Shown here piece after piece: positions 16,705-38,306 of a stretch of DNA of 41,325 bases. The stretch is from positions 1-41,325 of the forward strand of contig JAKJHH010000001.1 of the NCBI GenBank assembly GCA_022703965.1, given 5' to 3'. The notes below the pieces were generated by a model. That model searched no databases, was not told where the DNA came from, and was given only the letters and a program-made list of their open reading frames with translations. This stretch comes from Verrucomicrobiota bacterium (GTDB lineage Bacteria > Verrucomicrobiota > Lentisphaeria > Victivallales > UBA1829). Every line of letters begins with the position of its first letter. Positions within the stretch are counted from its first letter, which is position 1. The position numbers and the translations under genes were made by a program.

Positions 16705-17580
16705 TCACTTTTCCTTATATTTGCTTGGAGTCTCTCCAAAATGCCGTTTAAATTCTTTGGAAAAATGAAACTCATCATAATATCCCAGCTCATAAGCAGT
16801 TTCCCGGACGCTTTTTCCGCTTTCAAGAAGCTTTAGGGCTTCTTTCATCTTTTTCTCTCTCATATAGGCTTTAAGGGGCATTCCGAATTCATCCGGGAAA
16901 TTATGAGAAAGAAAAGAACTTGATTTAGCTGCCGCCTCTGCAAGCATGTTTAAAGTGATTTTCTTTGTCAGATTGGCTCCGATAAAATCTTCTATTTTTT
17001 CGGCCCAGTCCTTGTTATTGTTCTTGATGATCTCATTTTCGCTTATGTATTCGCTCAGATATTTCAGCAGAGCCCCGATATCATGCATCTCCTTTTCAGT
17101 AGATTCGCGATTCCTGAATATCAGAGAGTCTTCACTGTAGCCAAGATCTTTATAATCAAGCTCTTTGTCGCGTAGCTGCCCGAATACTATTGAACCAAGA
17201 TATTTGCGGTGTTTGTCGTAAAGCGGAATCATGCCTTCCAGGAGTCCGGTGTGACAATGATAAATGTGGATCTTTCGAGTCTTCCTGGCTGTTTCAAGAT
17301 TCTCCCGGTCACAGGCGATGCAGCGTTCTCTTGTCTCGGGATTTTTGCGATTTTCATTGCAAAAAGGAGAAATCTCCTTGATGTTGAACCCCTCAAGCTC
17401 TCCTCCTTGAAGATCGAAAAAGGTTATGCGTATATCCAGAACGCGATAAAGCAGTCCCATTATCTCGTTCATCTCATTTGTCTGCACAATGTATTTAAGC
17501 ATATCCGATATCTCCTTCAAATAATATGTACTAATATTCATAAAATGCCAGATTTTACATGTAAAAGTTTTTTCTTCCAT
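16705..17580 (-). CDS. AraC-family regulator with an N-terminal PocR sensory domain
   Basis: 291-aa ORF. The PocR-like segment reads FCNENRKNPETRERCIACDRENLETARKTRKIHIYHCHTGLLEGMIPLY...GSIVFGQL. The C-terminal AraC HTH reads ETAYELGYYDEFHFSKEFKRHFGETPSKY. Confidence 0.75.
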   Translation of the reverse strand: MEEKTFTCKIWHFMNISTYYLKEISDMLKYIVQTNEMNEIMGLLYRVLDIRITFFDLQGGELEGFNIKEISPFCNENRKNPETRERCIACDRENLETARKTRKIHIYHCHTGLLEGMIPLYDKHRKYLGSIVFGQLRDKELDYKDLGYSEDSLIFRNRESTEKEMHDIGALLKYLSEYISENEIIKNNNKDWAEKIEDFIGANLTKKITLNMLAEAAAKSSSFLSHNFPDEFGMPLKAYMREKKMKEALKLLESGKSVRETAYELGYYDEFHFSKEFKRHFGETPSKYKEK

Positions 17581-17608
17581 TCAAATAGCATCTCAGAGCT
17601 TCTATAAT
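17580..17608 (+). promoter_or_regulatory. candidate promoter of the isomerase-kinase-GH36-aldolase operon
   Basis: TTCAAA (17580-17585), a 17-nt spacer, then TATAAT (17603-17608). The SD AAGAGG lies 6 nt before the ATG at 17647. Confidence 0.4.
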
Positions 17609-17646
17609 TATTGCCATAACGATGAATTTTCAGAAAGAGGATATTT

Positions 17647-19050
17647 ATGCTTCGCAAAACCAGTTTCGCTCTATTTTTCGGCAACCGCGGATTTTTCCCT
17701 GAAAGCCTGATTGCTTCGGCAAGAAAAGAAATCTCAGCACGTCTGGAATCTCTTGGCTACGGCGTTCTGATGTCCGACGAAAAAGCAACTCGTTACGGTG
17801 CCGTGGAAAGTCCGGAAGAAGGCCGCACTTATGCCGCTTTTCTGGAGAAAAACAGGGGGAATTTTGACGGGGTAGTTCTCTGTCTGCCGAATTTCGGCGA
17901 TGAAACCGGAGCTGTCGAGGCTCTTCGTGACGCTAATGTGCCTATATACATTCTGGCTTATCCGGACGAACTCGATAAAATGGATTTCTCCTCACGCCGT
18001 GATGCCTTCTGCGGAAAGTTTTCCATCATGGATGTCTTCAAGCAGTACGGAATCAAGTTCACGGTATTTCCGCCGCACGTGCTTTCTCCGTCCTCGAAAC
18101 TCTTTGAGGAACAGATTGCCGATTTCGCCGCCGTCTGCCGCGTTGTCAAGGGAATGAAACGTTGCACTGTAGGCGCTGTCGGAGCCAGAACAAGCGCCTT
18201 CAAGACAGTTCGTTTCGATGAGCTTTGTCTTGAAAAGTACGGCATCACGACTGAAGTTTTCGACCTCTCCGAGATCATCCGCCTCGTTCAGCTGAAGGAT
18301 ATGGAGACCGCCGAGTGCAAGGCCAAAAAAGAGACATTCAAAAACTACTGCGATTTCAGCTCAGTTCCGGAATCGAATTTTGCGAATCTGGTTAAACTCT
18401 CGGTAGTTCTGGATGAGATCATAGCAGAAAATCATCTTGATGCTCTGGCTCTGCGCTGCTGGCTGGAACTCGAAAAAGTCCTCCATATCGCTCCTTGCGT
18501 AATTCTCAGCGAACTCAACGACAGAGGCTTCCCTGCCGCCTGCGAACTTGATATCGGAAACGCCATTGGAATGTATGCTCTGAAACTTGCCACCGGAAAT
18601 CCGGCTGCCTGTCTCGACTGGAACAACAATTATGCCGATGATCCGGACAAGTGTATTCTCTTCCACTGCGGACCAGTCGCTCAGTCGCTTATGACTGCAA
18701 AAGGCAAGGTTATAGATCATCCCATGTTCGCCAAGGCTCTCGGTGCCGGATGCGGCTACGGCTGCAATGTCGGCAGAATCGCCCCTGCCCCGTTTTCCTT
18801 CGCGAGTTCGACAACTCAGGACGGCAAGTTGAGTTTCTACATCGGTGACGGAGAATTCACTGCTGACCCGATCGCTCCTGAATTCTTCGGTTGCGCAGGT
18901 GTTGCAAAAATCGAGAATCTTCAGCGCAAACTCTATAATCTCGGTTATGCCGGATACCGTCATCACGTAAGCGTGGCTCCCGGCAGAGTCGCTTCAGCTC
19001 TCCGTGAAGCCTTTTCCCGTTACCTTGGCTATGAAATAACGGAAATCTGA
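17647..19050 (+). CDS. L-fucose isomerase-family (short, ~470 aa) aldose-ketose isomerase
   Basis: 467-aa ORF. It shows FucI-family features: LCLPNFGDE, ACELDIGNAIGMYAL, DWNNNY, GYRHHVSVAPG. Confidence 0.75.
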   Translation: MLRKTSFALFFGNRGFFPESLIASARKEISARLESLGYGVLMSDEKATRYGAVESPEEGRTYAAFLEKNRGNFDGVVLCLPNFGDETGAVEALRDANVPIYILAYPDELDKMDFSSRRDAFCGKFSIMDVFKQYGIKFTVFPPHVLSPSSKLFEEQIADFAAVCRVVKGMKRCTVGAVGARTSAFKTVRFDELCLEKYGITTEVFDLSEIIRLVQLKDMETAECKAKKETFKNYCDFSSVPESNFANLVKLSVVLDEIIAENHLDALALRCWLELEKVLHIAPCVILSELNDRGFPAACELDIGNAIGMYALKLATGNPAACLDWNNNYADDPDKCILFHCGPVAQSLMTAKGKVIDHPMFAKALGAGCGYGCNVGRIAPAPFSFASSTTQDGKLSFYIGDGEFTADPIAPEFFGCAGVAKIENLQRKLYNLGYAGYRHHVSVAPGRVASALREAFSRYLGYEITEI

Positions 19051-19054
19051 ACAT

Positions 19055-20539
19055 ATGAGCTATCTTGGCATCGACATCGGAACAAGCGGAGTAAAAGCCG
19101 TCCTCTTCAACGAGGACGGTGAGAATCTCGGCGGAGCCTATCGTCCTTATTCGTTGAAAACGGATGAGTCCGGAGCTGCCGAACTGGACTCCTCTCTTGT
19201 CATGAAACTTGCCTGTGAAGTGATTGCTGAAGCCGCTTCTCATGTCTCCGGAGATCCTGTGAAGGCTCTTTGCGTTTCTAGCCAGGGAGAAGCCGTAACT
19301 CCGCTTGGAACTGACGGCGAATATCTGGCAAACGCCATGGTGTCATCCGACCGAAGACCCGCCCCTTTCGTCGATCTTTTTACAGAGCAGTTCGGCCTTG
19401 AAAAACTCTATCGGATTACAGGGCATACTCCTTCGACTCTCTTCACCCTTTTCAAGATACTGTGGATGAAGGAGAAGAGGCCGGATATCTGGAAGAAAAC
19501 TCGTCGTTTATACTGTTTTGAAGATCTTCTTCATCAACGTCTTGGCATGAGTCCGGCGATGGGCTGGTCTCTTGCCGGAAGAACTATGCTTTTTGATGTC
19601 ACAAAGCATTCTTGGAGTCCTGAGATTCTGGATGCGCTTGAACTTGATGAGTCCTTTTTTGCGCGTCCTCTTCCAAGCGGTTCAGTGGCTGGCATCATTC
19701 CTGATAAAATCGCCGCCGCTCTTGGACTTCCTTCCGGCGTGAAAGTGGTTTGCGGCGGACACGATCAGATTATCGGAGCTCTCGGCGCCGGAGTCACTGA
19801 AGAGTCTACCGCCATGTATGCAGCCGGAACCGTGGAATGTATCTGTCCTGTCTTTTCCACTTTGACGCTTAACTCTCAGCTTTGCAAGAGAAACCTCTGT
19901 TCCTATGACTATGCGATAGAAGGTAAATACAGTTCGGTCGCCTACAGTCTTACGGGAAGCAATCTTTTTCAGTATTTTAAAGAAGAATTAGGCGGAGGCC
20001 GTTCCTATGCAGAACTACTGAATGAAATGCCGTCCACACCCTCTAAGCTGCTTGCTCTGCCATACTTTACGCCATCTGGTACGCCGTATTTCGATGGCAC
20101 AACCCCAGGCGCGATATTCGGACTTCGTCTTACAAGTTCGCGCGGTGAAATCCTGAAAGCTCTTCTGGAATCCGTTGCACTGGAAATGCGCCTGAATCTT
20201 TCGATAATGGAAGAAGCAGGAATGAAGATAAATCGTTTGATTGCGACCGGCGGCGGCGTTCGCGACCGCATGGCAGTTCAACTTAAAGCCGATGTCATCG
20301 GCAAGACAATTGAAACGATAGATGTCAGAGAAGCCGGATGTCTTGGAGCCGCTAGACTTGCACAATCGGCAGATCTAGGAATTCCGGTCATGAAGCTGGT
20401 CAGACGTGAACGCAAGCCGGAAAATGAAATTCATCCCTCTTTTGATACAGCTAGCGCCTATGAAGATAAGTTTTTGCAATACAAGATCTTCTATAGTGAA
20501 ATAAAAAACATTTCTGACAGATTATGGAGACGATCATGA
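19055..20539 (+). CDS. FGGY-family carbohydrate kinase
   Basis: 494-aa ORF. The N-terminus is MSYLGIDIGTSGVKAVLF. GHDQIIGALGAG and ATGGGVRD motifs are present. Confidence 0.85.
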   Translation: MSYLGIDIGTSGVKAVLFNEDGENLGGAYRPYSLKTDESGAAELDSSLVMKLACEVIAEAASHVSGDPVKALCVSSQGEAVTPLGTDGEYLANAMVSSDRRPAPFVDLFTEQFGLEKLYRITGHTPSTLFTLFKILWMKEKRPDIWKKTRRLYCFEDLLHQRLGMSPAMGWSLAGRTMLFDVTKHSWSPEILDALELDESFFARPLPSGSVAGIIPDKIAAALGLPSGVKVVCGGHDQIIGALGAGVTEESTAMYAAGTVECICPVFSTLTLNSQLCKRNLCSYDYAIEGKYSSVAYSLTGSNLFQYFKEELGGGRSYAELLNEMPSTPSKLLALPYFTPSGTPYFDGTTPGAIFGLRLTSSRGEILKALLESVALEMRLNLSIMEEAGMKINRLIATGGGVRDRMAVQLKADVIGKTIETIDVREAGCLGAARLAQSADLGIPVMKLVRRERKPENEIHPSFDTASAYEDKFLQYKIFYSEIKNISDRLWRRS

Positions 20540-21579
20540 GCTCTTTAAAGTTTAATTACGCAAAAGGCACGGAAGCAGATTTTCTGCGTCATACTGCCGA
20601 TATGGAACAGATCGCCTGGGCAAGAGCGTCAGAGCTCTCCGAAGGCGACGGACGCGGCAACAGAATCATTGACATCAACAACGGTTCCGGACTTGCTTTC
20701 ACAGTCGCACCTGATCGAGGACTGGATATAGTCGAGGCTTCGTTCTGCGGGATTCCGCTTGCCTTCCGCGCTCCCGCTGGACATGTTAATCCGGGACGCG
20801 CCCTACACAACGGCCTCTCATGGCTGAGAAGCTGGAGCGGAGGACTTCTGACAAGCTGCGGACTCCGTCACGTAGGCCCTCCTGAAGACGATGAAAATCC
20901 CCTTGATCCTCATCGCGGCCTGCATGGACGAATATCGGCTCAGAGTTCTTCAGATACATTCATTCATCGGGGATGGGAGAACGGACACTATGCAATCAAA
21001 GTCGGCGGCACACTGCGCGAAGCAATGATGTTCGGGGAAAATCTCCGCATTGGCAGAGAAATCACTACTGCCCTTGGCGATAACTCCATCCATATTGAGG
21101 ATACTGTCCGCAATATCGGCTCAAATCATGAATTTATTCAGATGCTTTATCATTGCAATTTTGGATATCCTTTTATTGCGCAGGACAGTAGACTTGAAGC
21201 TCCGCCTCACAAAATTACTCCGCGTGATGAATCCACCGTTCCCGGCCTTGGCTCATGGCATATTATGAGCAAACCTGAGTCCGGCGTAAAAGAGCAGTGT
21301 TTCCTGCATGAGCTTCCATCTGACGAATACGGCTGGGCTTCGATATCTCTTTCAAGTCCGTTTACCGGAGTAAAACTTATGCTATCTTACGATAGCTCCA
21401 CGCTTCCGCGCCTCATGCAGTGGAAACTGATGGAGAACGGTCGCTATGTCCTTGGACTTGAACCCACTAACACAACAGTCTCAGGCAGAGCAAAAGATAT
21501 CTCGAATGGAATAGCGCCCCGTCTTGAAGCGGGTGAATCCATCCGTTTCAGAGTCCGCCTGAGTTTTGAACTTATTTAA
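20536..21579 (+). CDS. aldose 1-epimerase-like protein (DUF4432 type)
   Basis: The ORF track starts it at 20524. I prefer the ATG at 20536, which overlaps the kinase stop as ATGA and has GGAG 6 nt upstream. Mutarotase-superfamily-like segments are GLDIVEASFCGIPLAF, SGGLLTSCGLRHVG and LHGRIS. Confidence 0.6.
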   Translation: MSSLKFNYAKGTEADFLRHTADMEQIAWARASELSEGDGRGNRIIDINNGSGLAFTVAPDRGLDIVEASFCGIPLAFRAPAGHVNPGRALHNGLSWLRSWSGGLLTSCGLRHVGPPEDDENPLDPHRGLHGRISAQSSSDTFIHRGWENGHYAIKVGGTLREAMMFGENLRIGREITTALGDNSIHIEDTVRNIGSNHEFIQMLYHCNFGYPFIAQDSRLEAPPHKITPRDESTVPGLGSWHIMSKPESGVKEQCFLHELPSDEYGWASISLSSPFTGVKLMLSYDSSTLPRLMQWKLMENGRYVLGLEPTNTTVSGRAKDISNGIAPRLEAGESIRFRVRLSFELI

Positions 21580-21590
21580 GGAGTCTGACA

Positions 21591-23663
21591 ATGTTTTTCA
21601 GTATACTTGAAAACGGCATATATATGGATGTAGATAAATGGGAAGACGGCCTTGTTCTCCTGCATCTCGGTCATCAGCCTTTCACTGCCGACACAGTTCC
21701 CGAGAAGGCAAAACAACGCTTTACAATGGTTGAAGTCCATTGCTCCGGCGCGGATCAGAATGACCATCACGGAGCAAAACATACAGCCTCGAATCCGGGC
21801 GCTCCGCTGCGTTATCTCTCGCACAGCGACAACAGAAATTCATATGGACGTCTGATTGAATTCGTTCAGGAAGCCGGAGACCTGCTCATCCGCTCGAAAT
21901 ACCAGTTTCTCGATGGAATTCCAGTTGTCCGCTCATGGACTGAGCTGGAAAACAGGGGCAGCAGCTTCATACCCGTCGAATACGTTTCCAGCTTCGCCTT
22001 GACAGGTCTTATGAAGGAGAATCCCTCAAATTGGAGTGACTCGGCGAGAATACATCTGCCCTTCAACAGCTGGACGGAGGAACTGCAATGGAAGTCCTTT
22101 AAGTCTTCTGAACTTGGACTTAACCGGATGCGTTCCTTTGACTTTTCCATGCAACGGATCGCCTTCTCCAACAGCGGAACATTCGCCGCCAAGGAAATCC
22201 TGCCTATGGGCGTTTTTGAAGACAAAACTAACTCATCTTTTTATGCGTGGCAGATTGAAACTCACGGCTCATGGAACTGGGAAATGGCGGAAATCAAAAA
22301 TCAGCTTTATCTTCAGCTTTCAGGCCCTTCCGATCAGGAAAATCAATGGTTCAAAGAACTCACCCCGAAAGAGAAATTCCAGTCTGTTCCCGTCGCTGTG
22401 ACAGTTCTGAAAGGTTCCATTGATGACGTATTTTCAGTTTTAAATGCTTATCGCCGCAGAATCCGCAGAATCAATCAGGACAACATTGATTTGCCTGTCA
22501 TCTTTAACGATTACATGAACTGCCTGAATGCCGATCCGACAACGGAAAAACTCCTTCCCCTCATCGACAAGGCGGCTTCCCTTGGAGCCGAATATTACGT
22601 CATTGATGCCGGATGGTATGCGGACGGCGCATGGTGGGATTCCGTCGGAGAATGGCAGGAATCAGCCAAACGCTTTCCGGACGGTTTTATCGAAGTCATC
22701 GATCACATCAGAGCCAAGGGAATGAAGCCGGGTCTCTGGCTCGAACTTGAGCGCATGGGCAAAAATTGTCCTCTCGCAAAGGTCTGGCCGGATGAATGCT
22801 TCTTTGTCAGACACGGACATCGTGTCATTGAACATCAATCGCTTCAACTTGATTTCAGACATCCGACTGTGCGTGCGCATGCCGATTCTGTAATAGACCG
22901 TCTGATCGGAGACTTAGGCATAAAATTCATAAAAATGGATTACAATATTGAGGCAGGCATCGGAACCGAAATTAATGCAGACAGTTTCGGTGACGGACTT
23001 CTCCAGCATCAGCGCGCTTATCTTGACTGGCTTGATTCCGTATTTAAACGTTACCCCGAGCTTGTGATCGAAAACTGTGCTTCGGGCGGACTGCGCAATA
23101 CTTACAGTCTGCTTTCCAAACTCAGCATCTGCTCGACAACCGACAACACAAATTATCTTTCAAACGCGAAAATCTCAATCAACAGTCCAACTGCATATTG
23201 TATGGAACAGGCCGGAGTATGGTCATATCCTCTCGCCGAAGCTTCGGACGAGGAAGTTATTATGAACATGGTCTCTTGCCTGAGCTGGCGTCCTTACCTG
23301 AGCGGTCAGATATGGGGACTTTCCGATGCAAAACTTGAGCTGATTAGAGAAGGCGTAAGACTCTACAAAAATCACTTGCGCAAGCTGATTCCTTCCGCAA
23401 GCCCATTCTGGCCTCTGGGACTTGCCGCCTACAATGCGCAGGAGGGCGCGTTCGGCCTGAAATCAAAGGATAAAATTATTCTCTCTGTCTGGAATTTCAG
23501 CGAAGTGGAAAGAAAAATTCTCATCCCTCTTTCCTCTGAATATGGCAAAGTTAAACTTTTATATCCAAGAGGATTCAAGACAGAATTTGAGCTTAAGGGA
23601 ACTACCTTACAAGTACAGCTTCCCGCTCTTTCCGCACGAATTCTTGAAATAGAACTGAATTAA
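21591..23663 (+). CDS. GH36 alpha-galactosidase-family glycoside hydrolase, cytoplasmic
   Basis: 690-aa ORF. Motifs are YVIDAGWY, GIKFIKMDYN (KxD nucleophile motif) and ENCASGGLR. The SD AAGGAG lies 8 nt upstream. No signal peptide. Confidence 0.8.
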   Translation: MFFSILENGIYMDVDKWEDGLVLLHLGHQPFTADTVPEKAKQRFTMVEVHCSGADQNDHHGAKHTASNPGAPLRYLSHSDNRNSYGRLIEFVQEAGDLLIRSKYQFLDGIPVVRSWTELENRGSSFIPVEYVSSFALTGLMKENPSNWSDSARIHLPFNSWTEELQWKSFKSSELGLNRMRSFDFSMQRIAFSNSGTFAAKEILPMGVFEDKTNSSFYAWQIETHGSWNWEMAEIKNQLYLQLSGPSDQENQWFKELTPKEKFQSVPVAVTVLKGSIDDVFSVLNAYRRRIRRINQDNIDLPVIFNDYMNCLNADPTTEKLLPLIDKAASLGAEYYVIDAGWYADGAWWDSVGEWQESAKRFPDGFIEVIDHIRAKGMKPGLWLELERMGKNCPLAKVWPDECFFVRHGHRVIEHQSLQLDFRHPTVRAHADSVIDRLIGDLGIKFIKMDYNIEAGIGTEINADSFGDGLLQHQRAYLDWLDSVFKRYPELVIENCASGGLRNTYSLLSKLSICSTTDNTNYLSNAKISINSPTAYCMEQAGVWSYPLAEASDEEVIMNMVSCLSWRPYLSGQIWGLSDAKLELIREGVRLYKNHLRKLIPSASPFWPLGLAAYNAQEGAFGLKSKDKIILSVWNFSEVERKILIPLSSEYGKVKLLYPRGFKTEFELKGTTLQVQLPALSARILEIELN

Positions 23664-23679
23664 TCAAACGGAGATTTAT

Positions 23680-24525
23680 ATGCTTTGCACGGCCAAAGAA
23701 TTGTTGAAAGACGCGTCAACCCGTAAATATGGAGTAGGAATGTTCAATGTCGTAAGTCTTGATTGCGTAAGAGCAGTCTGTGAAACGGCAGAAGCATTGA
23801 AATCTCCTGTAATGATCGCCCTTGCCGAAATCCATCTGCCTTATGCTCCTATAGAGCTTATGGCGCCCTTGATGCTCGCCGCTGCACGGAACGCAAAAGT
23901 TCCTGTTGCGGTTCATCTCGACCACGGATGCAGTTTCGAGGTACTTGTCAAAGCTGTAAACGCCGGATTCACATCAGTCATGTTCGACGGCTCAACTCTT
24001 CCCTATGCCGAAAATCTCGGCAGAACAAAAGAAATAGTAAAAATAGCCTCGGTTTCAGGGACTTCAGTAGAAGCCGAAATCGGACATGTCGGCGGTGGAG
24101 AAGGCGGCACTGAAGACAGCTCTCCTGAGCTCTACACCGAACCGGAACAGGCCTTACGTTTCGCTCAGGAAAGCGGCATTGACTCCCTTGCGGTCGCCAT
24201 CGGCACTGTTCACGGCGAATTCAAAAAGACTCCTCGTCTGGATTTTGAGCGTCTTTCCGCAATTCACAAGATAGTATCTCAGCCCCTTGTCCTGCACGGC
24301 GGTTCGGGTCTCTCCGACGATGATTTCAGGGAATGCATCAGACGCGGCATCAGCAAAGTCAACATCTTCACCGATATGTCCTACGCAGGCAGTGAAGCCG
24401 CGCGCAAGGCTCTCGCCTCAGGCAAAAAGATGCATTGTTTCGAGTTCACCGAAGCCTCCAGAAAAACAATGGATGAAGTAGTCGAGACAAAAATCCGTCT
24501 CTTCGGCAGCAACGGCATGGCTTGA
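23680..24525 (+). CDS. class II (metal-dependent) ketose-phosphate aldolase, FBA/tagatose-bisphosphate aldolase family
   Basis: 281-aa ORF. Motifs are VAVHLDHG, EAEIGHVGG and LVLHGGSG. The size matches the GatY/KbaY/IolJ type. Confidence 0.85.
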   Translation: MLCTAKELLKDASTRKYGVGMFNVVSLDCVRAVCETAEALKSPVMIALAEIHLPYAPIELMAPLMLAAARNAKVPVAVHLDHGCSFEVLVKAVNAGFTSVMFDGSTLPYAENLGRTKEIVKIASVSGTSVEAEIGHVGGGEGGTEDSSPELYTEPEQALRFAQESGIDSLAVAIGTVHGEFKKTPRLDFERLSAIHKIVSQPLVLHGGSGLSDDDFRECIRRGISKVNIFTDMSYAGSEAARKALASGKKMHCFEFTEASRKTMDEVVETKIRLFGSNGMA

Positions 24526-24600
24526 TCATAATTTTCAGTCCTTTTCTTTATCTTTTCAAATAAAGCCGTATTTTACATCAAAAGCTTCAGGACAGGAACC

Positions 24601-25548
24601 ATGATATCAGAACTCTTATTTAAAAACATAGCAGTTTCAAGAGTCTGTTTCGGACAGGCTTATATCGGACAGTACTACTCGGAACAAGAGGCGTGGCGTC
24701 TGCTTGATATATATCTGGAACATGGCGGAAATTTTATCGATACCGCCAGAATCTATTCCGACTGGGTTCCTGGAGAAAAGGGAAGAAGCGAAAGAATTCT
24801 GGGAGATTATTTCCTGCATTCCTGCAAGCGTGACAAGTTCGTCATAAGCACCAAGGGCGGATGTCAGCCTGACGGCATGTTTTCTCCTTCCGATCTTATG
24901 AAAGATCTCGAAAACAGCCTTGCCGCCATGCGAACTGATCACGTGGAATTCTATCTTTTTCATCGAGATATCAAAAAATATCCTCCAGAAGCCTTTATGG
25001 AGCTTCTGGAACTCGCTAAAACTCAGGGAAAAATACTTGAGTACGGAGTTTCGAACTGGCCTTTGTCCCGCTGTTCCGAGGCACTGAACGCGGCTGCCTC
25101 GCATCACTGGACCGGCATTAAAGTCAATCAGATCCTCCTGAGTCCCGGCGTGCAATATGCCAGAGCTCAGTCCGACCCTTCAATCATCACATGGGACGCT
25201 GATTTTGCGGATTTTCACCGGAAAAGCAAAATTCCTGTCATGGCGTTTTCCTCTCAGGCTAAAGGATTTTTCAGCAGATATCTGAATCCGCTCACACGCG
25301 AAACCTCAAGGGATAACGAATTTTATTCCGCAGAAAATGTGGAAGCCGCCTGTAAAATGGAGCATCTTTCAAAGAGATACGGGATTTCGCTCACCAACAT
25401 TATCATGCAGTATTTGACTCGCTATCCTGAAATTCAAGTTTTTCCTGTCTTCAGCGTGAAAAGCGAAGCACAACTAATTGATGTCATGAAATCATTTGAG
25501 ATTCCGATCCCTGATCATGAGCTTGCATCGCTTGTGCCTTATCTGTAA
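24601..25548 (+). CDS. aldo/keto reductase
   Basis: 315-aa ORF. AKR catalytic residues are visible in FIDTARIY (Asp, Tyr), STKGG (Lys) and LFHRD (His). Confidence 0.85.
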   Translation: MISELLFKNIAVSRVCFGQAYIGQYYSEQEAWRLLDIYLEHGGNFIDTARIYSDWVPGEKGRSERILGDYFLHSCKRDKFVISTKGGCQPDGMFSPSDLMKDLENSLAAMRTDHVEFYLFHRDIKKYPPEAFMELLELAKTQGKILEYGVSNWPLSRCSEALNAAASHHWTGIKVNQILLSPGVQYARAQSDPSIITWDADFADFHRKSKIPVMAFSSQAKGFFSRYLNPLTRETSRDNEFYSAENVEAACKMEHLSKRYGISLTNIIMQYLTRYPEIQVFPVFSVKSEAQLIDVMKSFEIPIPDHELASLVPYL

Positions 25549-26483
25549 CGACGCAGAAGAGTCTCTGCATTTCTGGAAAAGAAATTCTCAGTTTCTTCAG
25601 AAGATATTTCCAGATTTCTGAAGGCGTTGCGAATAGCGATAAGCTCTCCGTATATTCGAAAAATCTTGAGCTCACGTCCATGAAATTTAAAGCTCACATT
25701 CCGCCTGCATCCTCCGATTACAAGGGCGTTGTCACTGCCGAAGATAATCCTTTTCCGGTTCTCATGAACAAAAAGACTCTTCAAGGTTTCAGTATCATAT
25801 ATAAGCGCACTGTCATAAAAAATATTAGGAATGTCGGCAAGCATTTTTATTGTTCTATCAATCTGCCCTGATTCAAATGAGGCGGCGCAATGAGCCATAA
25901 TCCATTTAATCTCAGGATATTTTGAACTGTAATATTCGAGTTCTGCAAGCAAATTCTCCGCTACTCCCGGCAGGTGGATAATTACCGGCATTTTCCAAGC
26001 GTTGGCTACTTCCATCTGTTCTTCAGGAAAATACTCCGTGATTGAAGGCATTTTTTTGTCGACCATGCTGAAATACGGTTTCAATGCGACACAGTTGGCA
26101 TGCCTGCTTATAAATGATTCGATGTCGGCTGCTGAAATCTCAGGACTCAAAAGCATTGCGCCGCGTGAATCCTTGTCCTGTGCAAGTTCCTCCGCCGCCC
26201 ATTCACTTACTCCCTTGTGATCCGTATTCCTGACCGGACTCGGAAAGGATAAAAAATGGATTTTTCGCCCCGGATAGAACAGCGAGCTGATATCCTGAAG
26301 TTCCTTCAATCCTGTATTATAATTTTCCCAGTCATTTGGAGGATTCGCGTCTTTTGAGAACGCTTTGTTCCAGAGATGTGTATGAGCATCAAAAATCTTT
26401 CGCGGCACAAAATTTTCAAGCTCTTCATCCCATATTTCACGATCAAGAGCAGCATAATCCAAAAGCCTTCTTATGTCGTTCAT
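25539..26483 (-). CDS. amidohydrolase_2-type metal-dependent hydrolase (the family includes sugar-lactone lactonases)
   Basis: 314-aa ORF. It has FDAHTHLW near the N-terminus and a TIM-barrel hydrolase pattern. Its 3' end overlaps the convergent AKR gene by 10 bp. Confidence 0.7.
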   Translation of the reverse strand: MNDIRRLLDYAALDREIWDEELENFVPRKIFDAHTHLWNKAFSKDANPPNDWENYNTGLKELQDISSLFYPGRKIHFLSFPSPVRNTDHKGVSEWAAEELAQDKDSRGAMLLSPEISAADIESFISRHANCVALKPYFSMVDKKMPSITEYFPEEQMEVANAWKMPVIIHLPGVAENLLAELEYYSSKYPEIKWIMAHCAASFESGQIDRTIKMLADIPNIFYDSALIYDTETLKSLFVHENRKRIIFGSDNALVIGGCRRNVSFKFHGRELKIFRIYGELIAIRNAFRNLEISSEETENFFSRNAETLLRRYR

Positions 26484-26495
26484 TCTTAACCCTTT

Positions 26496-27521
26496 TTAAT
26501 ATGCTATGCAAACCGGAGAGCGCAATGATATTTTGATCCTTTCAGCATCGTCATGCAATCCTGTGATTTCTAGACTGTCATCTCCGGCGCAGGCAGTGAT
26601 GATTCTTCCGTCCGAAAGGAATTCACAATCCCAAGGGGTTTTTCCAACAGCTATAAAACCGTCCGGCAAAAGACTCCCGTCTGGATTAATTCTAAAAGCT
26701 GCCAGCGACTCATGACCACGGTTTGAGACCAGAAGAGTTTTGGCGTCTTTAGAAAGGCGCAGTGCAGCGTTTTCAGAATAGCCTGAGTAAGACTCCGGCA
26801 GACTTGAAAACGTCTGAAGATGCTTCAGTTGTCCTTCGGAATACTCGAACGCCGCAAGCTGATTGCTGACCTGATAATTCACATACAAACGCCGTCCGTC
26901 AGGATGATAGACTAGATGCCTCGGTCCGCTTCCGGCTGGAACTCTGAAAACCTTGGCTTCCAGCTCTTCGCAGCCGGACTCCTTATTCAAATAATAGAAA
27001 TAAATACTGTCGTTGCCAAGATCGGACACAGTAAGAAATTTTCCATCAGGACTGATTCTCATGCAATGGGGATGCGCCGAACTTTGGAAACGTTCGTTTA
27101 TGCTGCTTCCATGATGAGATATGAGCCTGCATCGTTCACGGAGAGAACCATCATCATTCAGCTTGAATGCTACAAAATTTCCGCCCAGATAGTTGGCGGC
27201 GTAAATAAAGCCGTCATGCTCCATTATGTGACAAGTCCATTGGCCTCCGCTCGGCAGCGAATTGAGATATCTCAAAGTTCCGTCAGACTCTATCGCAAAC
27301 GATGCAAGTTCACCGTCCCCCGTAAAACGCGTGGATTCCCTGACTGCCGCATAAAGATTCTTCCCGGAAGCCGATACGATGATATACCTAAGCTGCGTTT
27401 GCAGAAATGAGCCTATCATCTTCACGTCTCTTCCGTTTAGCTCAAAAGCATAAATGCCGTCTTCCTCACTTTGTCCGAATGCGGCTGCGTAAAAGATTTC
27501 TCTGTCATTTTCTGTCTTCAT
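26496..27521 (-). CDS. 7-bladed beta-propeller lactonase (6-phosphogluconolactonase Pgl-type family)
   Basis: 341-aa ORF. It has GSGPRHLVYHPDGRRLYV and repeated propeller-blade patterns. Confidence 0.75.
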   Translation of the reverse strand: MKTENDREIFYAAAFGQSEEDGIYAFELNGRDVKMIGSFLQTQLRYIIVSASGKNLYAAVRESTRFTGDGELASFAIESDGTLRYLNSLPSGGQWTCHIMEHDGFIYAANYLGGNFVAFKLNDDGSLRERCRLISHHGSSINERFQSSAHPHCMRISPDGKFLTVSDLGNDSIYFYYLNKESGCEELEAKVFRVPAGSGPRHLVYHPDGRRLYVNYQVSNQLAAFEYSEGQLKHLQTFSSLPESYSGYSENAALRLSKDAKTLLVSNRGHESLAAFRINPDGSLLPDGFIAVGKTPWDCEFLSDGRIITACAGDDSLEITGLHDDAERIKISLRSPVCIAY

Positions 27522-27529
27522 TTTTTACC

Positions 27530-28843
27530 TCAAAAAGTTGAATCAGCCATATTTTCGCCCATCGTTTCTCTGACATTGAATGAGCAATATGCAACGATTC
27601 CGGCCAGAACCATCAATGCTCCGAAAACCGCCAGATAAGATTTTGAGCTGTATACCATAAGCCCATTCTGAAGTTCCGGAGGAAAAATATTCATCAGCAG
27701 TCCGACTGCATTGCCAAGTAATGCCACGACCATATAACAAGTAAAATTCAGGATGCTGACAGAAACTCCCGTGAGCTCCTGAATATTGGTCTCCCTCAGC
27801 AACGGCACCACGATAGAGGATGTACTTGCCGTAAAAGAAAGCATGCAGAGCAGTCCGGCAATCCATGTTGATCTCATGTCAAGAATCAGCATGAGACTGA
27901 TAAGTGAAAACATCAGAATACAGCTTATTCCGGCGATTCTGACGAAAATCCTCCGTCTGTTTCCGCTCATCCGGCTGAGCAAGGCAAAGCCGAGTCCGGA
28001 AAATGCCGAGATAAAGCCCATAAGCGAGAGTATCCATGCCGCGTTTTCCGAGCTCATCGAACAGAAGTCCTCAAGAAACTTCTTGCCTATGACCGTCTGA
28101 ATCACATAATAGAGCCCGAAATTTATGCCGCAGAAAAGGAAAAGATCCCTGTTGTGACGCTTTTTCAATATACTTAGAAAAGGACTGAAACTGAACGGCA
28201 CATACTTGAATTCAGGCATTCTCAAAGTGGATTTAGCCAGAAGGAAAAGCAGATAAAAACTGATGGACAGGACAGCCACCATTATCATAGCATTGCGCCA
28301 TCCATATATGTTGATGTAATAGACAAACGGAGCGTTAGCCATGATTCCCCCCGCATAGCCGATCAGAATCATGACGGAAAGCATTATCATGAAGTTTTTA
28401 TTGAATGAACGCATTATTTCCTTTACAAGACTCAAATAAAGCGAACTCGCCCCCAGTCCGGTCAAAGCCCTGCTTAAATATAGCATGAAAAGACTGTCGG
28501 AAACTGGAAAAATCAATGATCCTATGCAAAAAATCAATGCTCCGAACGCGATTACTCTGGCTCCTCCGTAACGGTCGACGAGCAAGCCGATTCCGAGCTG
28601 GCAGAGCGCATAAATATACATGAACGACGAGCCGAACGCGGTTATGTACGGAGCCGACACATCAAGCTCCTGCTGAAGCAGATTAAAGACAGATCCGGGA
28701 ATGGCGACTCTCTGAATATTCGCGAAAAAATAGAGCGCTGTCCCGCAGATCAGCAAGCTCCACAAACGGTACTTGCGGGGAATCTTTTGAAGATATTCTC
28801 TCATCGTTTTTATCTTTTCATAAAAATGAAAAATGCGGAGCAT
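27530..28843 (-). CDS. MFS transporter
   Basis: 437-aa ORF that is hydrophobic throughout, with about 12 predicted helices by eye. It contains LGIGLLVDRYGGARV. The alternative start M14 is at 28804. Confidence 0.85.
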   Translation of the reverse strand: MLRIFHFYEKIKTMREYLQKIPRKYRLWSLLICGTALYFFANIQRVAIPGSVFNLLQQELDVSAPYITAFGSSFMYIYALCQLGIGLLVDRYGGARVIAFGALIFCIGSLIFPVSDSLFMLYLSRALTGLGASSLYLSLVKEIMRSFNKNFMIMLSVMILIGYAGGIMANAPFVYYINIYGWRNAMIMVAVLSISFYLLFLLAKSTLRMPEFKYVPFSFSPFLSILKKRHNRDLFLFCGINFGLYYVIQTVIGKKFLEDFCSMSSENAAWILSLMGFISAFSGLGFALLSRMSGNRRRIFVRIAGISCILMFSLISLMLILDMRSTWIAGLLCMLSFTASTSSIVVPLLRETNIQELTGVSVSILNFTCYMVVALLGNAVGLLMNIFPPELQNGLMVYSSKSYLAVFGALMVLAGIVAYCSFNVRETMGENMADSTF

Positions 28844-28922
28844 TTTTGTAGGGTACAGGCGTCACGCCTGTCCGCCGAGCGGCGGCAGAGCGATCTCCGT
28901 TCCATTCCCTGCTTTATTAGCC

Positions 28923-29879
28923 TTAGCGTATCTTCAGGACAATTTTGCCTGTATTTTCATTACGCTCAAGAATCGCGTGTGCGGACTCCGCTTCGGAAAT
29001 CGGCAGAATCTTGTAAATGAGCGGCCTGATTTTTCCTTTTTCGATTTCAGGCCAGAGCTTGCTCTCCATTTCACGCAGAATGAAGCCCTTCATTTCATTG
29101 CTTCTGCTTCTGAGTGTGCTACCGATAAGACGAAGTCCCTTTTTAAGTATCGGACGCAAGGCTATATTGGCATGTTCTCCGCCAAGGGTGGCGATGAGAA
29201 TCCAGCGTCCGCCCTGAGCCATTTTCTCAATATGCTTTCCTAGATCTTCTCCTCCGACACAGTCAAGTGTTATGTCTACCGGATTTTCATCCAGAATCTT
29301 GCCGATATCGTCTTTCTTGCGGTTAACAACAATATCTGCGCCGATCTTGCGGACAGCATCGGCCTTCTCGTCGGAACCAACTGTAGTTATGAGCTTGGCT
29401 CCGAAAGCTTTCGCTGTCTGTATGGCCGCTATGCCCAGACCGCTTGCCCCGGCATGAATCAGCACGGTGTCTCCTGCTTTTATGCCCGCTTCGATGCAGA
29501 GATTCAGATATGATGTCGCAAAGACTTCCGGCAAGGCGGCTGCCTCCTCCATTGAAAGTCCTTTCGGAATCGACATCAACATGTCCTGAGGCACGGCAAC
29601 TTTTTGAGCATAGCCACCTCCTCCGAGCAGAGCACAGACTTTGTCGCCTGCTTTCCAGCGTGAATTCTGCGGAGCTTTAAGGACGATTCCGGCAGCTTCA
29701 AGCCCCATCCATTCCGGCCAGCCGAGAGGCGGCGGATATTTTCCAGCTCTCTGAAGCAGATCCGCACGGTTAAGCGCGGTCGCGTGAACTTCTACAAGCA
29801 CTTCTCCTTCTTTGAGCTGAGGATCAGGCACTTCACTCCATATAAGTTTTTTATCTGCATCAACCAGCATTGCGTACAT
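28923..29879 (-). CDS. NAD(P)H:quinone oxidoreductase-type medium-chain dehydrogenase/reductase
   Basis: 318-aa ORF. It has ALNRADLLQRAGKYPPP and IHAGASGLG (a Rossmann motif). Confidence 0.85.
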   Translation of the reverse strand: MYAMLVDADKKLIWSEVPDPQLKEGEVLVEVHATALNRADLLQRAGKYPPPLGWPEWMGLEAAGIVLKAPQNSRWKAGDKVCALLGGGGYAQKVAVPQDMLMSIPKGLSMEEAAALPEVFATSYLNLCIEAGIKAGDTVLIHAGASGLGIAAIQTAKAFGAKLITTVGSDEKADAVRKIGADIVVNRKKDDIGKILDENPVDITLDCVGGEDLGKHIEKMAQGGRWILIATLGGEHANIALRPILKKGLRLIGSTLRSRSNEMKGFILREMESKLWPEIEKGKIRPLIYKILPISEAESAHAILERNENTGKIVLKIR

Positions 29880-29898
29880 TCTCTGATTCTCCTTGATT

Positions 29899-31038
29899 TT
29901 ATTGAATTTCCAATGGATGCCGACGTTCTTTCAAAGGCAACGATACAGGATGTCCCGAAAGATGAGCGGCATATGTTCCAACTATCATTTCAAGTGCTAT
30001 TCTTGCGTCGCGAGAGCCGGATTGAACATTTGAGCCGTCTCTGATTGCACAAAGCAAATCCCAAGCCGCAAAACGGTTGTTTGTTCCGAAGTAAAAGTGA
30101 TCGTAACTTTTCATTCCCAACTCCTCGTAATTGAGCGGCAAGGCATCGGGAATAATCCGGCTTTCCTGCAAGGAAAGCTCTTCAAAAGACGCTTCGTCTT
30201 CAGGAGGCATCGCTGTACCTTTCTTGAATCTCAAAGAGCGTTCACCGCTGTATCTGACGGCTAGGCTTCCTTTTGTTCCGGCCACAACTAAGCCCATATG
30301 AGACGCGTCATTGCGCTCCATCAGGCCGCGACGACTTTCAAAAATCCCGTTAACGCCGTTAGGAAAACGGTAGAACGCCATAATTTCATCCCCTGCGACA
30401 GGCCCGACAGGTTCTTCGGTTTTGAGTCTGTCTTTTGCCGTAATCGGCTTTCCGTTCACGCGGATATCTGCCCATACCTGCTCAGGCGCTCCAAAGAGAT
30501 AGGCTCCAAGATCAAGAATATGCGTCCCAAGCACAATCATATCCTCGCCGCCGCCTCGCGGATCTTCCTTGCCTCGACCATAGAAGGTCAGGACTCTGCC
30601 GATTGCGCCATCCTCGATCATCTTTTTCATTGTCCGGAACACGAGAGCATAGCGTCCGAGATGAGCGATGAGGATTTTAATTTTCTTCGCCTCCGCAAGT
30701 TCAATAAGTTCGTCAGCCTGACGCAAATCGGCAACAAAAGGTTTTTCGCAGAGCACATGGCAGTTCATCGAAATAGCAAGCTTAATCTGCTCATAATGAT
30801 CCTCGGGCAGACGTGAACATAGAATGACGATTTCCGGACGCTCTTTTTCCATCATTTCTTTGTAGTTGCGATAGCGGCGAGAGGCTTCCGTAAGGCGCAT
30901 CCGCTCCTCAATTCCATCATCATTCGAGTCGCAGAGAGCGGCAGTTTCCACCCCCGGGAGCCCTTTGAACGCAAACTGCGTAAAATGACCTCCAAGGCGC
31001 CCTTCTCCTGTTTCATGACATATGCAGATTTTTTTCAT
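29899..31038 (-). CDS. Gfo/Idh/MocA-family oxidoreductase
   Basis: 379-aa ORF. It has an N-terminal Rossmann fold and the HVLCEKPF motif. Confidence 0.85.
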   Translation of the reverse strand: MKKICICHETGEGRLGGHFTQFAFKGLPGVETAALCDSNDDGIEERMRLTEASRRYRNYKEMMEKERPEIVILCSRLPEDHYEQIKLAISMNCHVLCEKPFVADLRQADELIELAEAKKIKILIAHLGRYALVFRTMKKMIEDGAIGRVLTFYGRGKEDPRGGGEDMIVLGTHILDLGAYLFGAPEQVWADIRVNGKPITAKDRLKTEEPVGPVAGDEIMAFYRFPNGVNGIFESRRGLMERNDASHMGLVVAGTKGSLAVRYSGERSLRFKKGTAMPPEDEASFEELSLQESRIIPDALPLNYEELGMKSYDHFYFGTNNRFAAWDLLCAIRDGSNVQSGSRDARIALEMIVGTYAAHLSGHPVSLPLKERRHPLEIQ

Positions 31039-31052
31039 TTATAAACTCCGAT

Positions 31053-31817
31053 TCAAATTTTTCCTGCTTTGGGGCCGAGCGTGCGTCCTCCATCGATCAG
31101 ATGACACTGTCCGGTAACAAACGCCGCCTCATCAGAGGCGAGATAGCAGATAAGATTCGCAATATCATCCGCTGAACTCGGACGTCCGAACACCGTCGAA
31201 TCCCCGAGTTTCTCCATCCCCGGACGAGTCGCTACGGCAGCCGGAGCAACACAGTTGACAGTAATCCCGTTATTTCCGTACATCATCGCAAGGGATTTTG
31301 TAATTGAAATTATAGCTCCTTTCGAGGCTGAATAAACAGGAATTCCAGACGCTCCCGCAGTGCCGCAGATTGAGCTGAGATTGACGATGCGTCCATAGTT
31401 TTTCTCCTTCATTTCAGGAAGAACTTTCTGGATGCACTGAATCGCGCTTCTGAGGTTGACCGCAAACTCCCAGTCTATATCCTTGACAGTCTGCTCCTCG
31501 AAAGAAACAAAACGTCCGAGCGCCATGCAGGAGCCTCCAGCGTTGTTGACCAGAATATCAATATGTCCGCCAAGCTTTTCCTTGGCTTCCTTGAGCATCC
31601 TTTCCGTGTCTGTCGCGTCGCTGAGATCCGCCGCAACGGCTATTGCCTGAAATCCGGCATTCTGAAGCTCATTTGCTAAAGCTGCCGCTCCTGCGGCGTT
31701 TATATCGTTTATAGCGACAAACGCGCCTTCACTCGCAAGCCTTCGGACGACGGCGGCTCCGATTCCTTTGGCAGCTCCAGTGACAAGTGCAGTTCTGTTT
31801 ATAAAACGCTTATTCAT
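31053..31817 (-). CDS. short-chain dehydrogenase/reductase (SDR paralogue A)
   Basis: I moved the start to M45 of the track ORF (ATG 31817-31815), which overlaps the upstream stop as ATGA. Motifs are TGAAKGIG, NNAGGS, YSASK and DGGRTLG. Confidence 0.85.
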   Translation of the reverse strand: MNKRFINRTALVTGAAKGIGAAVVRRLASEGAFVAINDINAAGAAALANELQNAGFQAIAVAADLSDATDTERMLKEAKEKLGGHIDILVNNAGGSCMALGRFVSFEEQTVKDIDWEFAVNLRSAIQCIQKVLPEMKEKNYGRIVNLSSICGTAGASGIPVYSASKGAIISITKSLAMMYGNNGITVNCVAPAAVATRPGMEKLGDSTVFGRPSSADDIANLICYLASDEAAFVTGQCHLIDGGRTLGPKAGKI

Positions 31818-32590
31818 TTTGCCTGACTCCTTGCTGTCGGCCCGAGACTGCGGCCTCCATCCACGATATAATTGCTGCCTGTAATAAACGATGCTTCCTC
31901 CGAGCTCAGAAAAGCGATCATTGAAGCCAGCTCGGAAGGGCGTCCGCAACGTCCGACATATGTTCCTTCGCTCGGAGGCATGAGTTCCGGTTCCTCTCCT
32001 GCCGCGTAACGTGCGATCAGGCCCGGAGAAACGGAATTGACGTTGATGTTATGACCCCCGAGTTCAATCGCCAGCGCTTTTGTGAAGCCTATGATTCCAG
32101 CTTTCGCCGCCGAATAGTCCGAGCGTTGCTCTATACCCACCTCAGCCGCGATTGATGAAATATTGATGATTTTACCGTAATGTTGTTTTATCATCGTCGG
32201 CAGGACAGCCTGGGTACAGCGCATTGTTCCGCCAAGATTTATATCCAGTACCCATTGCCAGATTTCCTCTCTGGCATCCTTGAATTCCGTGAGCTCATTA
32301 CGCAAAGCGGCACTGCCTCCGGCATTGTTGACAAGGATATCAATTCTTCCATATTTTTCGAGAACAGCCGAAACCATTTTCCTTACTGAATCCGTGCTTG
32401 TGACATCGCATTCCAACGCAAAAGCGTTTGCGTTGAATTTCAGTATCTTATCTAGCGTTTTTCGCGCTCCGTCCATACTCAAATCAGTGGCGACGACAAT
32501 TGCGCCTTCTTCCGCAAGGCGCAGACAGATTGCTCCGCCTATTGCGCCTCCTGCTCCAGTTACAATCGCTATTTTACCTTCGAGATTCAT
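31814..32590 (-). CDS. short-chain dehydrogenase/reductase (SDR paralogue B)
   Basis: 258-aa ORF. Motifs are TGAGGAIG, NNAGGS, YSAAK and DGGRSLG. Confidence 0.9.
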   Translation of the reverse strand: MNLEGKIAIVTGAGGAIGGAICLRLAEEGAIVVATDLSMDGARKTLDKILKFNANAFALECDVTSTDSVRKMVSAVLEKYGRIDILVNNAGGSAALRNELTEFKDAREEIWQWVLDINLGGTMRCTQAVLPTMIKQHYGKIINISSIAAEVGIEQRSDYSAAKAGIIGFTKALAIELGGHNINVNSVSPGLIARYAAGEEPELMPPSEGTYVGRCGRPSELASMIAFLSSEEASFITGSNYIVDGGRSLGPTARSQAK

Positions 32591-32607
32591 AATCTGTTTT
32601 TCCTGTT

Positions 32608-33363: not shown

Positions 33364-33379
33364 ATCAAAAAATCCTTTC

Positions 33380-34396: not shown

Positions 34397-34400
34397 TTTG

Positions 34401-35402: not shown

Positions 35403-35437
35403 GATTCATTGCCTTTGCAGGTTTTTTGTCTGGATAA

Positions 35438-35466
35438 ATTATATGACTCTTTTCTCTTGCGGACAA
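35438..35466 (-). promoter_or_regulatory. candidate promoter of the ten-gene oxidoreductase operon
   Basis: On the minus strand, TTGTCC (35466-35461) is followed by a 17-nt spacer and TATAAT (35443-35438). This is about 35 nt upstream of the start at 35402. Confidence 0.45.
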
Positions 35467-38292: not shown

Positions 38293-38306
38293 GTGTGTTT
38301 ATCCTT

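Follow-up and report, generated by a model that had tools for sequence, protein, structure and literature searches.

Which sugar is broken down by the operon at positions 16705-25548 of the DNA analysed here, and do its products feed the glycyl radical enzyme (GRE) encoded upstream of it? The stretch, referred to below as the window, comprises 41,325 nucleotides (contig JAKJHH010000001.1 of assembly GCA_022703965.1) and is contig C111 of the host assembly, a Lentisphaerota metagenome-assembled genome (MAG) of 4.2 Mb that is 78% complete. A preliminary description made from the letters of the sequence had read the operon as a fucose/rhamnose-style pathway assembled from unusual enzyme families, in which a PocR-domain regulator and a reductase hinted at a diol destined for the GRE. 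We scored the proteins of the window against Pfam and NCBIfam models (with equivalog cut-offs), matched them to PDB sequences and collected 80 related genomic loci. The region is a genuine six-gene cytoplasmic sugar-catabolic operon under a divergent PocR-AraC regulator, and it appears to be a lineage-specific mosaic of a cassette found in many phyla. We give about even weight for and against the reading that this mosaic copy serves the catabolism of a neutral sugar by a ketose-1-phosphate aldolase route, independent of the GRE.

The operon and its widespread cassette

All seven genes listed in the preliminary description were recovered at the coordinates given there, and their identities are supported by domain scores. 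The regulator (16705-17580, minus strand; 291 amino acids (aa)) combines a PocR domain (Pfam, 78.5 bits) with an AraC-type HTH_18 domain (71.7 bits). A divergent control region of 66 bp (17581-17646) separates it from six plus-strand genes, which encode a short aldose-ketose isomerase of the FucI/AraA superfamily with the Fucose_iso_C domain only (17647-19050; 467 aa), an FGGY-family sugar kinase with FGGY_N and FGGY_C domains (19055-20539; 494 aa), a DUF4432 protein of mutarotase-like fold (20524-21579; 351 aa; Pfam 299 bits), a cytoplasmic glycosidase of glycoside hydrolase family 36 (GH36; 21591-23663; 690 aa; Pfam Melibiase 117.5 bits), a PF01116 aldolase of the class II FBA/GatY type (23680-24525; 281 aa; F_bP_aldolase 316.5 bits) and an aldo/keto reductase (AKR; 24601-25548; 315 aa; Aldo_ket_red 154.5 bits). 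Spacings between the six genes are 4, -16, 11, 16 and 75 bp, and a promoter-like TTCAAA-17-TATAAT on the plus strand (17580-17608) agrees with the consensus at 10 of 12 positions, a consensus match only. By-eye inspection found no signal-peptide-like N-terminus among the six enzymes. The AKR is the final gene of the transcription unit, because a convergent gene overlaps its 3' end.

The grouping of these genes is not down to chance: the same partners recur beside the isomerase in related loci. Counting the window together with the 80 loci, 49 have an isomerase at least 55% identical to that of the window (identity to the other 48 is 55-80%). Of these 49, 29 have an FGGY kinase next to the isomerase and 26 a PF01116 gene; both counts are lower bounds because contig ends cut many loci. 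The isomerase has hundreds of homologues at 70-80% identity among Lentisphaerota and Bacteroidales, and the triad of isomerase, kinase and PF01116 enzyme is kept across Lentisphaerota, Bacteroidota, Chloroflexota, Bacillota and others.

The core of the cassette is a divergent regulator followed by isomerase, FGGY kinase, DUF4432 protein and PF01116 aldolase. The window contains all of these, namely an isomerase of the same subfamily, a kinase of the cassette clade, a PF01116 gene, a DUF4432 gene and a divergent PocR-AraC regulator. Common companions of the triad are the DUF4432 protein and a 390-aa protein resembling mannitol-1-phosphate 5-dehydrogenase (MtlD-like). Loci L014 (9715-11847) and L020 (6273-8405) encode a 710-aa fusion of the MtlD-like (Mannitol_dh_C) dehydrogenase with DUF4432, which implies that both act on the same or consecutive intermediates; the DUF4432 and PocR-AraC pair also occurs in L014, L020, L057 and L117. 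The divergent regulator is of the PocR-AraC type in Lentisphaerota and some Bacillota and of a cupin-AraC type in Bacteroidales, and orthologues of the window regulator (44-60% identity) are divergent from the isomerase in L014, L019-L023, L026 and L031.

Two distinct PF01116 subtypes accompany the same isomerase-kinase pair, which argues for a single conserved chemical role. The glycosidases and esterases that flank the cassette vary by lineage (GH43, GH3, GH2, esterases, GH36) and so name no single polymer. No second kinase was found in the window operon or in any related cassette. Our literature search yielded no published description of this gene set, and the papers mentioning 'DUF4432' were unrelated. 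Gut, rumen and sediment bacteria from many phyla carry the cassette, which lacks an assigned sugar and a published pathway; naming its sugar would close a gap that recurs whenever the metabolism of glycan degraders is reconstructed.

The closest full relative of the window operon is L014, from a Lentisphaerae MAG, with a divergent regulator, the usual 306-aa aldolase of the cassette (AldU), isomerase, kinase, the MtlD-like::DUF4432 fusion and GH36 in this order. Identity between the two loci is 60% for the regulator, 76% for the isomerase, 61% for the kinase, 62% for DUF4432 (which aligns with the DUF4432 half of the fusion) and 60% for GH36. AldU and the MtlD-like dehydrogenase are missing from the window and were not detected in the rest of the assembly; 3' of the GH36 gene stand instead another PF01116 paralogue and the AKR. 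The window copy therefore appears to be a lineage-specific mosaic in which a paralogous aldolase and an AKR replace AldU and the MtlD-like dehydrogenase. We infer that one lineage lost its aldolase and oxidoreductase and substituted both by non-orthologous genes. The replacement of both suggests that the aldolase and oxidoreductase functions belong to the pathway, and the swap is a natural pointer to functions that the pathway cannot do without. The G+C content is 0.47-0.50 across the operon (window positions 17001-23000) against 0.43-0.46 in the flanks, and the cassette was not found in 14 sampled genomes of the host's own family; together these observations are consistent with lateral acquisition.

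Enzyme families and the candidate sugar

The GH36 glycosidase has a single NCBIfam match, the beta-L-arabinopyranosidase BAD_1528, which covers nearly its full length (455.3 bits, E 3e-136) and lies below the 1100-bit cut-off; solved alpha-galactosidases match with at most 96 bits (E 1e-26). The only orthologue found is that of L014; a search of 150 Lentisphaerota sample genomes (E <= 1e-80) yielded none. The enzyme presumably releases a monosaccharide from an imported glycoside, and the presence of a dedicated cytoplasmic GH36 in the window narrows the candidate sugars.

The isomerase gave no PDB sequence match and scored 80.7 bits on the equivalog model of the sulfoquinovose isomerase SftI, for which the cut-off is 700. 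Its sister clade, at about 41% identity, is found in Sedimentisphaerales, Phycisphaerae and Pirellulales, in operons with a ribulokinase (677 bits) and AraD (346 bits), both over cut-off, a GH51-like arabinofuranosidase and an ATP-binding cassette (ABC) system. AraD occurs without AraA in four of the seven Lentisphaerota sample genomes that carry this sister clade. Taken with the araB-araD operons, this pattern suggests that the sister clade is probably a non-orthologous L-arabinose isomerase, distinct from AraA. The combination of a BAD_1528-like GH36 with the araB-araD context of the sister clade points weakly to L-arabinose/D-galactose stereochemistry, and we tentatively propose that the sugar of the operon may be L-arabinose- or D-galactose-configured. 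As a candidate, strict replacement of AraA is supported for the sister clade and unsupported for the isomerase subfamily of the window, since canonical AraA and AraD co-occur in three of the six cassette-carrying sampled genomes. In Planctomycetota, the sister-clade gene order is araB, araD, in some cases a GH51-like gene, and the short FucI-like isomerase, together with an ABC transporter (L067:5906-11407; also L068-L070, L076, L088 and L090).

A fucose-type substrate, as had been envisaged at the outset, did not survive the comparison with related genomes. A canonical long FucI is encoded in all six sampled Lentisphaerota genomes with the cassette, in L118 only 7 kb from it on the same contig, and the host itself has a divergent long FucI-like gene on contig C72. 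L-fucose is therefore unlikely as the substrate, and a role of the window isomerase as a replacement for L-fucose isomerase was ruled out on the same grounds. Proteins of the AraA family PF02610 and of PF00596, as well as AraB, were not detected in the host genome, of which 78% is represented, whereas GalK is present.

Other short FucI-like isomerases were seen in the host and beyond. One is located between a PfkB kinase and KduI plus an FGGY fragment (contig C352:13071-16541) and another adjoins a xylose-isomerase-like TIM barrel and a Gfo/Idh/MocA enzyme (contig C122:4613-7737); they score 253 and 272 bits, respectively, on the sulfoquinovose-isomerase model, far above the isomerase of the window. 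In cultured Cytophagales (Botryobacter, Lacihabitans, Dyadobacter; L086:10001-19982, also L080 and L087), an isomerase of about 40% identity is found with a split transketolase, an ABC transporter and an FGGY kinase of the GlpK clade, a different isomerase-plus-transketolase pathway.

The best equivalog of the kinase is XylB (251 bits against a cut-off of 380); the FucK model gives 135.9 against 470.9 and the ribulokinase model 97.3 against 428. A quick tree with E. coli references placed the cassette kinases in a clade of their own (SH-aLRT, an approximate likelihood-ratio branch support, 97), with that of the window inside it (97-99), outside the FucK/RhaB, XylB/AraB and GlpK clades; in this tree they grouped neither with the kinases acting on carbon 1 (C1) nor with those acting on a distal carbon. 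The DUF4432 protein matches the PDB entry 3TY1, a 'hypothetical aldose 1-epimerase' (E 1.2e-23), and is presumed to be an anomerase for the sugar or the ketose.

The aldolase belongs to the class II ketose-bisphosphate aldolase superfamily, with the PF01116 domain and conserved motifs, and passes only the generic subfamily model TIGR00167 (271.3 bits against 215.6). It falls below every equivalog cut-off, including those of the tagatose models TIGR01858 (247.2 against 443.55), GatY (266.8 against 383) and KbaY (187.6 against 542). Its motifs HLDHG, VHG and LHGGSG align with those of KbaY, GatY and YdjI, and the zinc and Asp-His residues are kept. In both aldolase subtypes of the cassette the Asp-His motif and the zinc histidines are intact, as are the HGG(S/T)G loop and the Asn at the site for dihydroxyacetone phosphate (DHAP); this fits a DHAP-forming aldolase. 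Mapping of the distal-phosphate residues (Ser49, Arg259 and Arg280 of the Helicobacter pylori enzyme; PMC10665668) was ambiguous in the C-terminal alignment with E. coli FbaA, KbaY, GatY and YdjI. The window aldolase is 31-43% identical to the aldolases of related loci and differs from AldU in subtype and operon position.

Its nearest relatives (57-63% identity) occur in a different conserved set, clusters of aldolase, PfkB kinase and lyxose/mannose isomerase, with or without a ROK kinase, near GH38 mannosidases. Such clusters, headed by a major facilitator superfamily (MFS) transporter gene and located beside GH38 alpha-mannosidases, are found at L120:6709-11258, L122:6706-11289 and L123:8001-10438. 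A housekeeping function as fructose-bisphosphate aldolase was ruled out for the window enzyme, as contig C128 carries an equivalog-level FBA (630 bits). Contig C97 (4463-7787) encodes yet another PF01116 paralogue, the third, which shares 42% identity with the window aldolase and adjoins an FAD-linked oxidase and a 340-aa protein without a Pfam match.

In the AKR, the Asp, Tyr, Lys and His of the family's catalytic tetrad are placed, by eye, as expected. No orthologue was found in the 80 related loci, and the next-best relative among 5.8 billion proteins is 45% identical and stands in an unrelated context. A fixed place in the pathway for the reductase, presented in the preliminary description as its closing step, is thus not supported.

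Possible routes through the pathway

The reading we favour is that of a ketose-1-phosphate route. GH36 would cut an imported glycoside and release an alpha-D-galacto- or beta-L-arabinopyrano-configured sugar, the anomers of which would be equilibrated by the DUF4432 protein. The isomerase would convert the aldose to the ketose, which the FGGY kinase would phosphorylate beside the keto group; the PF01116 enzyme would then split the ketose 1-phosphate into DHAP and a short hydroxy-aldehyde, and the AKR might reduce the resulting aldehyde or another carbonyl of the pathway. The operon is a variant of a known pathway logic, built from different enzyme families.

The nearest published parallel is the sulfo-EMP2 pathway of sulfoglycolysis (PMC10665668). 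There, sulfoquinovose passes through a PF02952 isomerase and a kinase before a PF01116 aldolase splits the resulting ketose 1-phosphate into DHAP and sulfolactaldehyde; the latter is subsequently reduced. The cluster, of the Bacillus urumqiensis type, is SqvB-SqvD-SqiK-SqiA, with a PF16161 mutarotase, a PF02952 isomerase, a PF00365 kinase and a PF01116 aldolase (PMC10665668). The two systems are alike in having a FucI-like PF02952 isomerase, a mutarotase, a kinase, a PF01116 aldolase acting (as proposed here) on a ketose 1-monophosphate, and an aldehyde-handling reductase or dehydrogenase. They are unlike in that the window has an FGGY kinase in place of PF00365, DUF4432 in place of PF16161 and GH36 in place of a GH31 sulfoquinovosidase. 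Only PF02952 and PF01116 are common to both, the SftI score is far under its cut-off, and the locus gives no sign of a sulfonated sugar. The earlier proposal of an isomerase-kinase-aldolase logic from families other than those of FucIKA and RhaBAD holds up as a plausible reading.

The same succession of aldose, ketose, ketose 1-phosphate, DHAP plus aldehyde, and alcohol (as proposed here) is shared with E. coli FucIKA-FucO and RhaABD, as are a mutarotase and an AraC-type activator. Unlike FucI, the isomerase of the window has the C domain and lacks the N1 and N2 domains; the kinase is outside the FucK/RhaB clade and far below the FucK cut-off, the aldolase is a TIM-barrel PF01116 protein and not a member of PF00596, to which no protein of the 78%-complete genome could be assigned, and the reductase is an AKR and not an iron-dependent alcohol dehydrogenase. 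The E. coli ydj cluster (YdjG AKR, YdjH kinase, YdjI aldolase) likewise places a PF01116 aldolase beside an AKR and a single kinase, and YdjI is annotated as an L-glycero-L-galacto-octuluronate-1-phosphate aldolase, with a ketose 1-monophosphate as substrate. In contrast to the window, its kinase is of the PfkB type, isomerase and glycosidase are missing and its substrates are acidic; the window AKR reaches only 28 bits on the YdjG model.

Several points weigh against the ketose-1-phosphate route. Every step of it is inferred. The kinase is outside the C1-phosphorylating FucK/RhaB clade and its best model, XylB, is a distal-carbon kinase; a distal phosphate is also hinted at by the resemblance of the usual MtlD-like partner to mannitol-1-phosphate 5-dehydrogenase. 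The relatives of the aldolase adjoin PfkB and often ROK kinases, an arrangement that could equally feed a bisphosphate aldolase, and GH36 reaches only 455 bits on a model with a 1100-bit cut-off. The AKR is assigned to the pathway by adjacency alone (75-bp gap), because it is unique to the window locus. Finally, a second route is not obviously needed for either L-arabinose or D-galactose, as AraA and AraD are found in three of the six cassette genomes and GalK in the host.

We consider a rival epimerase route unlikely. Here L-arabinose or D-galactose would be isomerised to L-ribulose or D-tagatose, which the XylB-like kinase would phosphorylate on the distal carbon. The PF01116 protein, taking the part of AraD without being its orthologue, would be a retro-aldol 4-epimerase with D-xylulose 5-phosphate or fructose 6-phosphate as its product. 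E. coli FbaA, itself a PF01116 enzyme, catalyses 4-epimerisation of fructose 6-phosphate/tagatose 6-phosphate in vitro (PMC5434028). Such a route would fit the best kinase model, XylB, a cassette without a second kinase, an MtlD-like partner that resembles a polyol-phosphate dehydrogenase, the araB-araD operons of the sister isomerase clade with AraD but not AraA in four of seven genomes, and a GH36 closest to beta-L-arabinopyranosidase. The araBAD pathway offers parallels: the isomerase is about 41% identical to those of araB-araD operons and the order of aldolase-fold enzyme, isomerase and kinase is similar, although the window has neither an AraB-type ribulokinase nor PF02610 or PF00596 proteins, and a PF01116 protein stands in the place of AraD. 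The failure to find AraA, AraB or a PF00596 protein in the host also favours the epimerase, but such absences weigh little in a genome that is only 78% complete. Against this route, both aldolase subtypes keep the HGG(S/T)G loop and the Asn at the DHAP-phosphate site, for which an epimerase acting on a substrate with unphosphorylated C1 would have no need; canonical AraA and AraD are also present in half of the six cassette genomes, and no role is left for the AKR. In the D-altritol and galactitol pathways of Agrobacterium the epimerase is reportedly a PF01116 member, which forms no part of the evidence here.

A bisphosphate route resembling that of tagatose is improbable. It corresponds to the outcome that the preliminary description had itself named as its refutation: the kinase would produce a ketose 6-phosphate, a housekeeping phosphofructokinase would add the second phosphate, and a GatY-like aldolase would release DHAP and glyceraldehyde 3-phosphate. 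Galactose is the usual product of GH36, PfkA-like genes are present in the host genome, and the nearest relatives of the aldolase adjoin PfkB and ROK kinases. On the subfamily models for GatY and for tagatose-bisphosphate aldolase the enzyme itself reaches 266-268 bits, and it is above the cut-off of TIGR00167 (271 against 215.6), but it stays under every GatY/KbaY cut-off (for instance 247 against 443.5 bits). A tblastn query with E. coli GatZ had no match in the host genome, a second kinase is lacking in the operon and in all related cassettes, GalK already serves galactose, and both the AKR and the MtlD-like partner would be left unexplained. The galactitol/tagatose pathway (GatY/KbaY, GatZ, GatD, PfkA) and, in E. 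coli Nissle 1917, the D-tagatose cluster (PMC9720028) share with the cassette a PF01116 ketose-phosphate aldolase and, frequently, a polyol(-phosphate) dehydrogenase, and a galactose-configured substrate, as in those systems, is plausible. Unlike them, the window is without GatZ, a phosphotransferase system (PTS) or a dedicated second kinase, and entry is by an isomerase and not by PTS or ABC uptake plus kinase.

The ketose-1-phosphate and epimerase routes share one broader proposal, to which we assign a probability a little short of even: that the cassette is an undescribed catabolic pathway for a common plant or glycan sugar of L-arabinose/D-galactose configuration, in which a TIM-barrel PF01116 enzyme does the job of the adducin-fold FucA, RhaD and AraD, either as ketose-1-phosphate aldolase or as 4-epimerase. 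If so, the window copy would be such a pathway rebuilt in one lineage, with a paralogous aldolase and an AKR swapped for the usual aldolase and MtlD-like dehydrogenase. The biochemistry of the cassette would also bear on whether FBA-type class II enzymes serve as monophosphate aldolases or 4-epimerases beyond sulfoglycolysis.

The PocR domain, the glycyl radical enzyme and neighbouring genes

The PocR domain takes its name from a 1,2-propanediol-responsive regulator, and its presence had been read as a clue to a diol. The window regulator reaches 78.5 bits on the NCBIfam PocR equivalog NF047788, for which the cut-off is 500, and shares only the sensory domain with the pdu/cob regulator; no pdu or cob genes are found in the window. 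Moreover, the 78%-complete host genome contains 11 PocR domains above the Pfam cut-off, mostly in AraC-type frames of about 290 aa, and the same type of regulator accompanies the cassette at loci that have neither the AKR nor a GRE. On these observations, the domain is no diol-specific clue here.

The GRE (5851-8061) and its activase (8066-8962) are encoded 7.7-9.6 kb upstream of the operon. The GRE has a divergent AraC regulator of its own (4923-5747) and is separated from the operon by a 7.6-kb module on the opposite strand, one gene of which has a sub-threshold GntR-type match (19.6 against 27 bits). Orthologues of the GRE (44-63% identity) were found in 12 of the 150 sampled genomes, 11 of which lack the cassette; in the twelfth, G041, the cassette is located on other contigs. 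Conversely, five of the six cassette genomes have no GRE orthologue. The link between operon and GRE drawn in the preliminary description consequently receives no support from the comparative evidence, and an opportunistic link in this one organism is possible. With the diol-feeding idea unsupported, the GRE is best studied on its own.

GREs do occur near isomerase homologues elsewhere. In a Verrucomicrobiota MAG (L038:2016-6680), an activase and a compact 726-aa GRE precede a 59%-identical isomerase homologue, co-directionally and with a 21-bp gap, at a locus without kinase or aldolase, and in L033 a GRE is located 4 kb from the isomerase. Both GREs are only 23-26% identical to that of the window (23% for L038), and are no nearer to it than to the two other GREs of the host genome.

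In its complete form, the preliminary model had a 6-deoxyhexose of the fucose type converted to lactaldehyde, which the AKR would reduce to a vicinal diol sensed by PocR and consumed by the neighbouring GRE; we regard this as highly improbable. The order of isomerase, kinase, aldolase and reductase fits it, as do the namesake of PocR, a GRE about 9 kb off in the same glycan island, at least five GH29 fucosidases in a genome in which no PF00596 aldolase was detected, and the unrelated GRE and activase directly upstream of the isomerase homologue in L038. Against it stand the canonical long FucI of all six cassette relatives and the long FucI-like gene on C72, the multiplicity of PocR domains in the host, an AKR that is not conserved with the cassette, the separate AraC regulator of the GRE, the near-complete disjunction of GRE orthologues and cassette (G041 excepted), and the low identity of the L033 and L038 GREs. 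A sulfoquinovose pathway feeding a GRE that uses 2,3-dihydroxypropane-1-sulfonate (DHPS) was ruled out, given the SftI score of 80.7 against 700, better SftI-like paralogues elsewhere in the genome, the wrong kinase, mutarotase and glycosidase families, and the lack of GRE-cassette co-occurrence.

Some neighbouring genes of the window complete the picture. A neighbouring 1337-aa protein was considered as a conserved extracellular partner of the operon and had no homologue in any related locus. Beside a LacI regulator, a minus-strand run (25539-36565) encodes an Amidohydro_2 protein, a seven-bladed lactonase, an MFS transporter, two zinc-dependent alcohol dehydrogenases, two Gfo/Idh/MocA enzymes and three short-chain dehydrogenases/reductases, and looks like an oxidative, non-phosphorylative sugar pathway. 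Further on, also on the minus strand (36617-40631), are genes for a GH78-type alpha-L-rhamnosidase (774 aa), a xylose-isomerase-like TIM barrel and a GDSL esterase. Elsewhere in the host genome, RhaA (55% identical to that of E. coli) is encoded on contig C9 and RhaB on contig C55.

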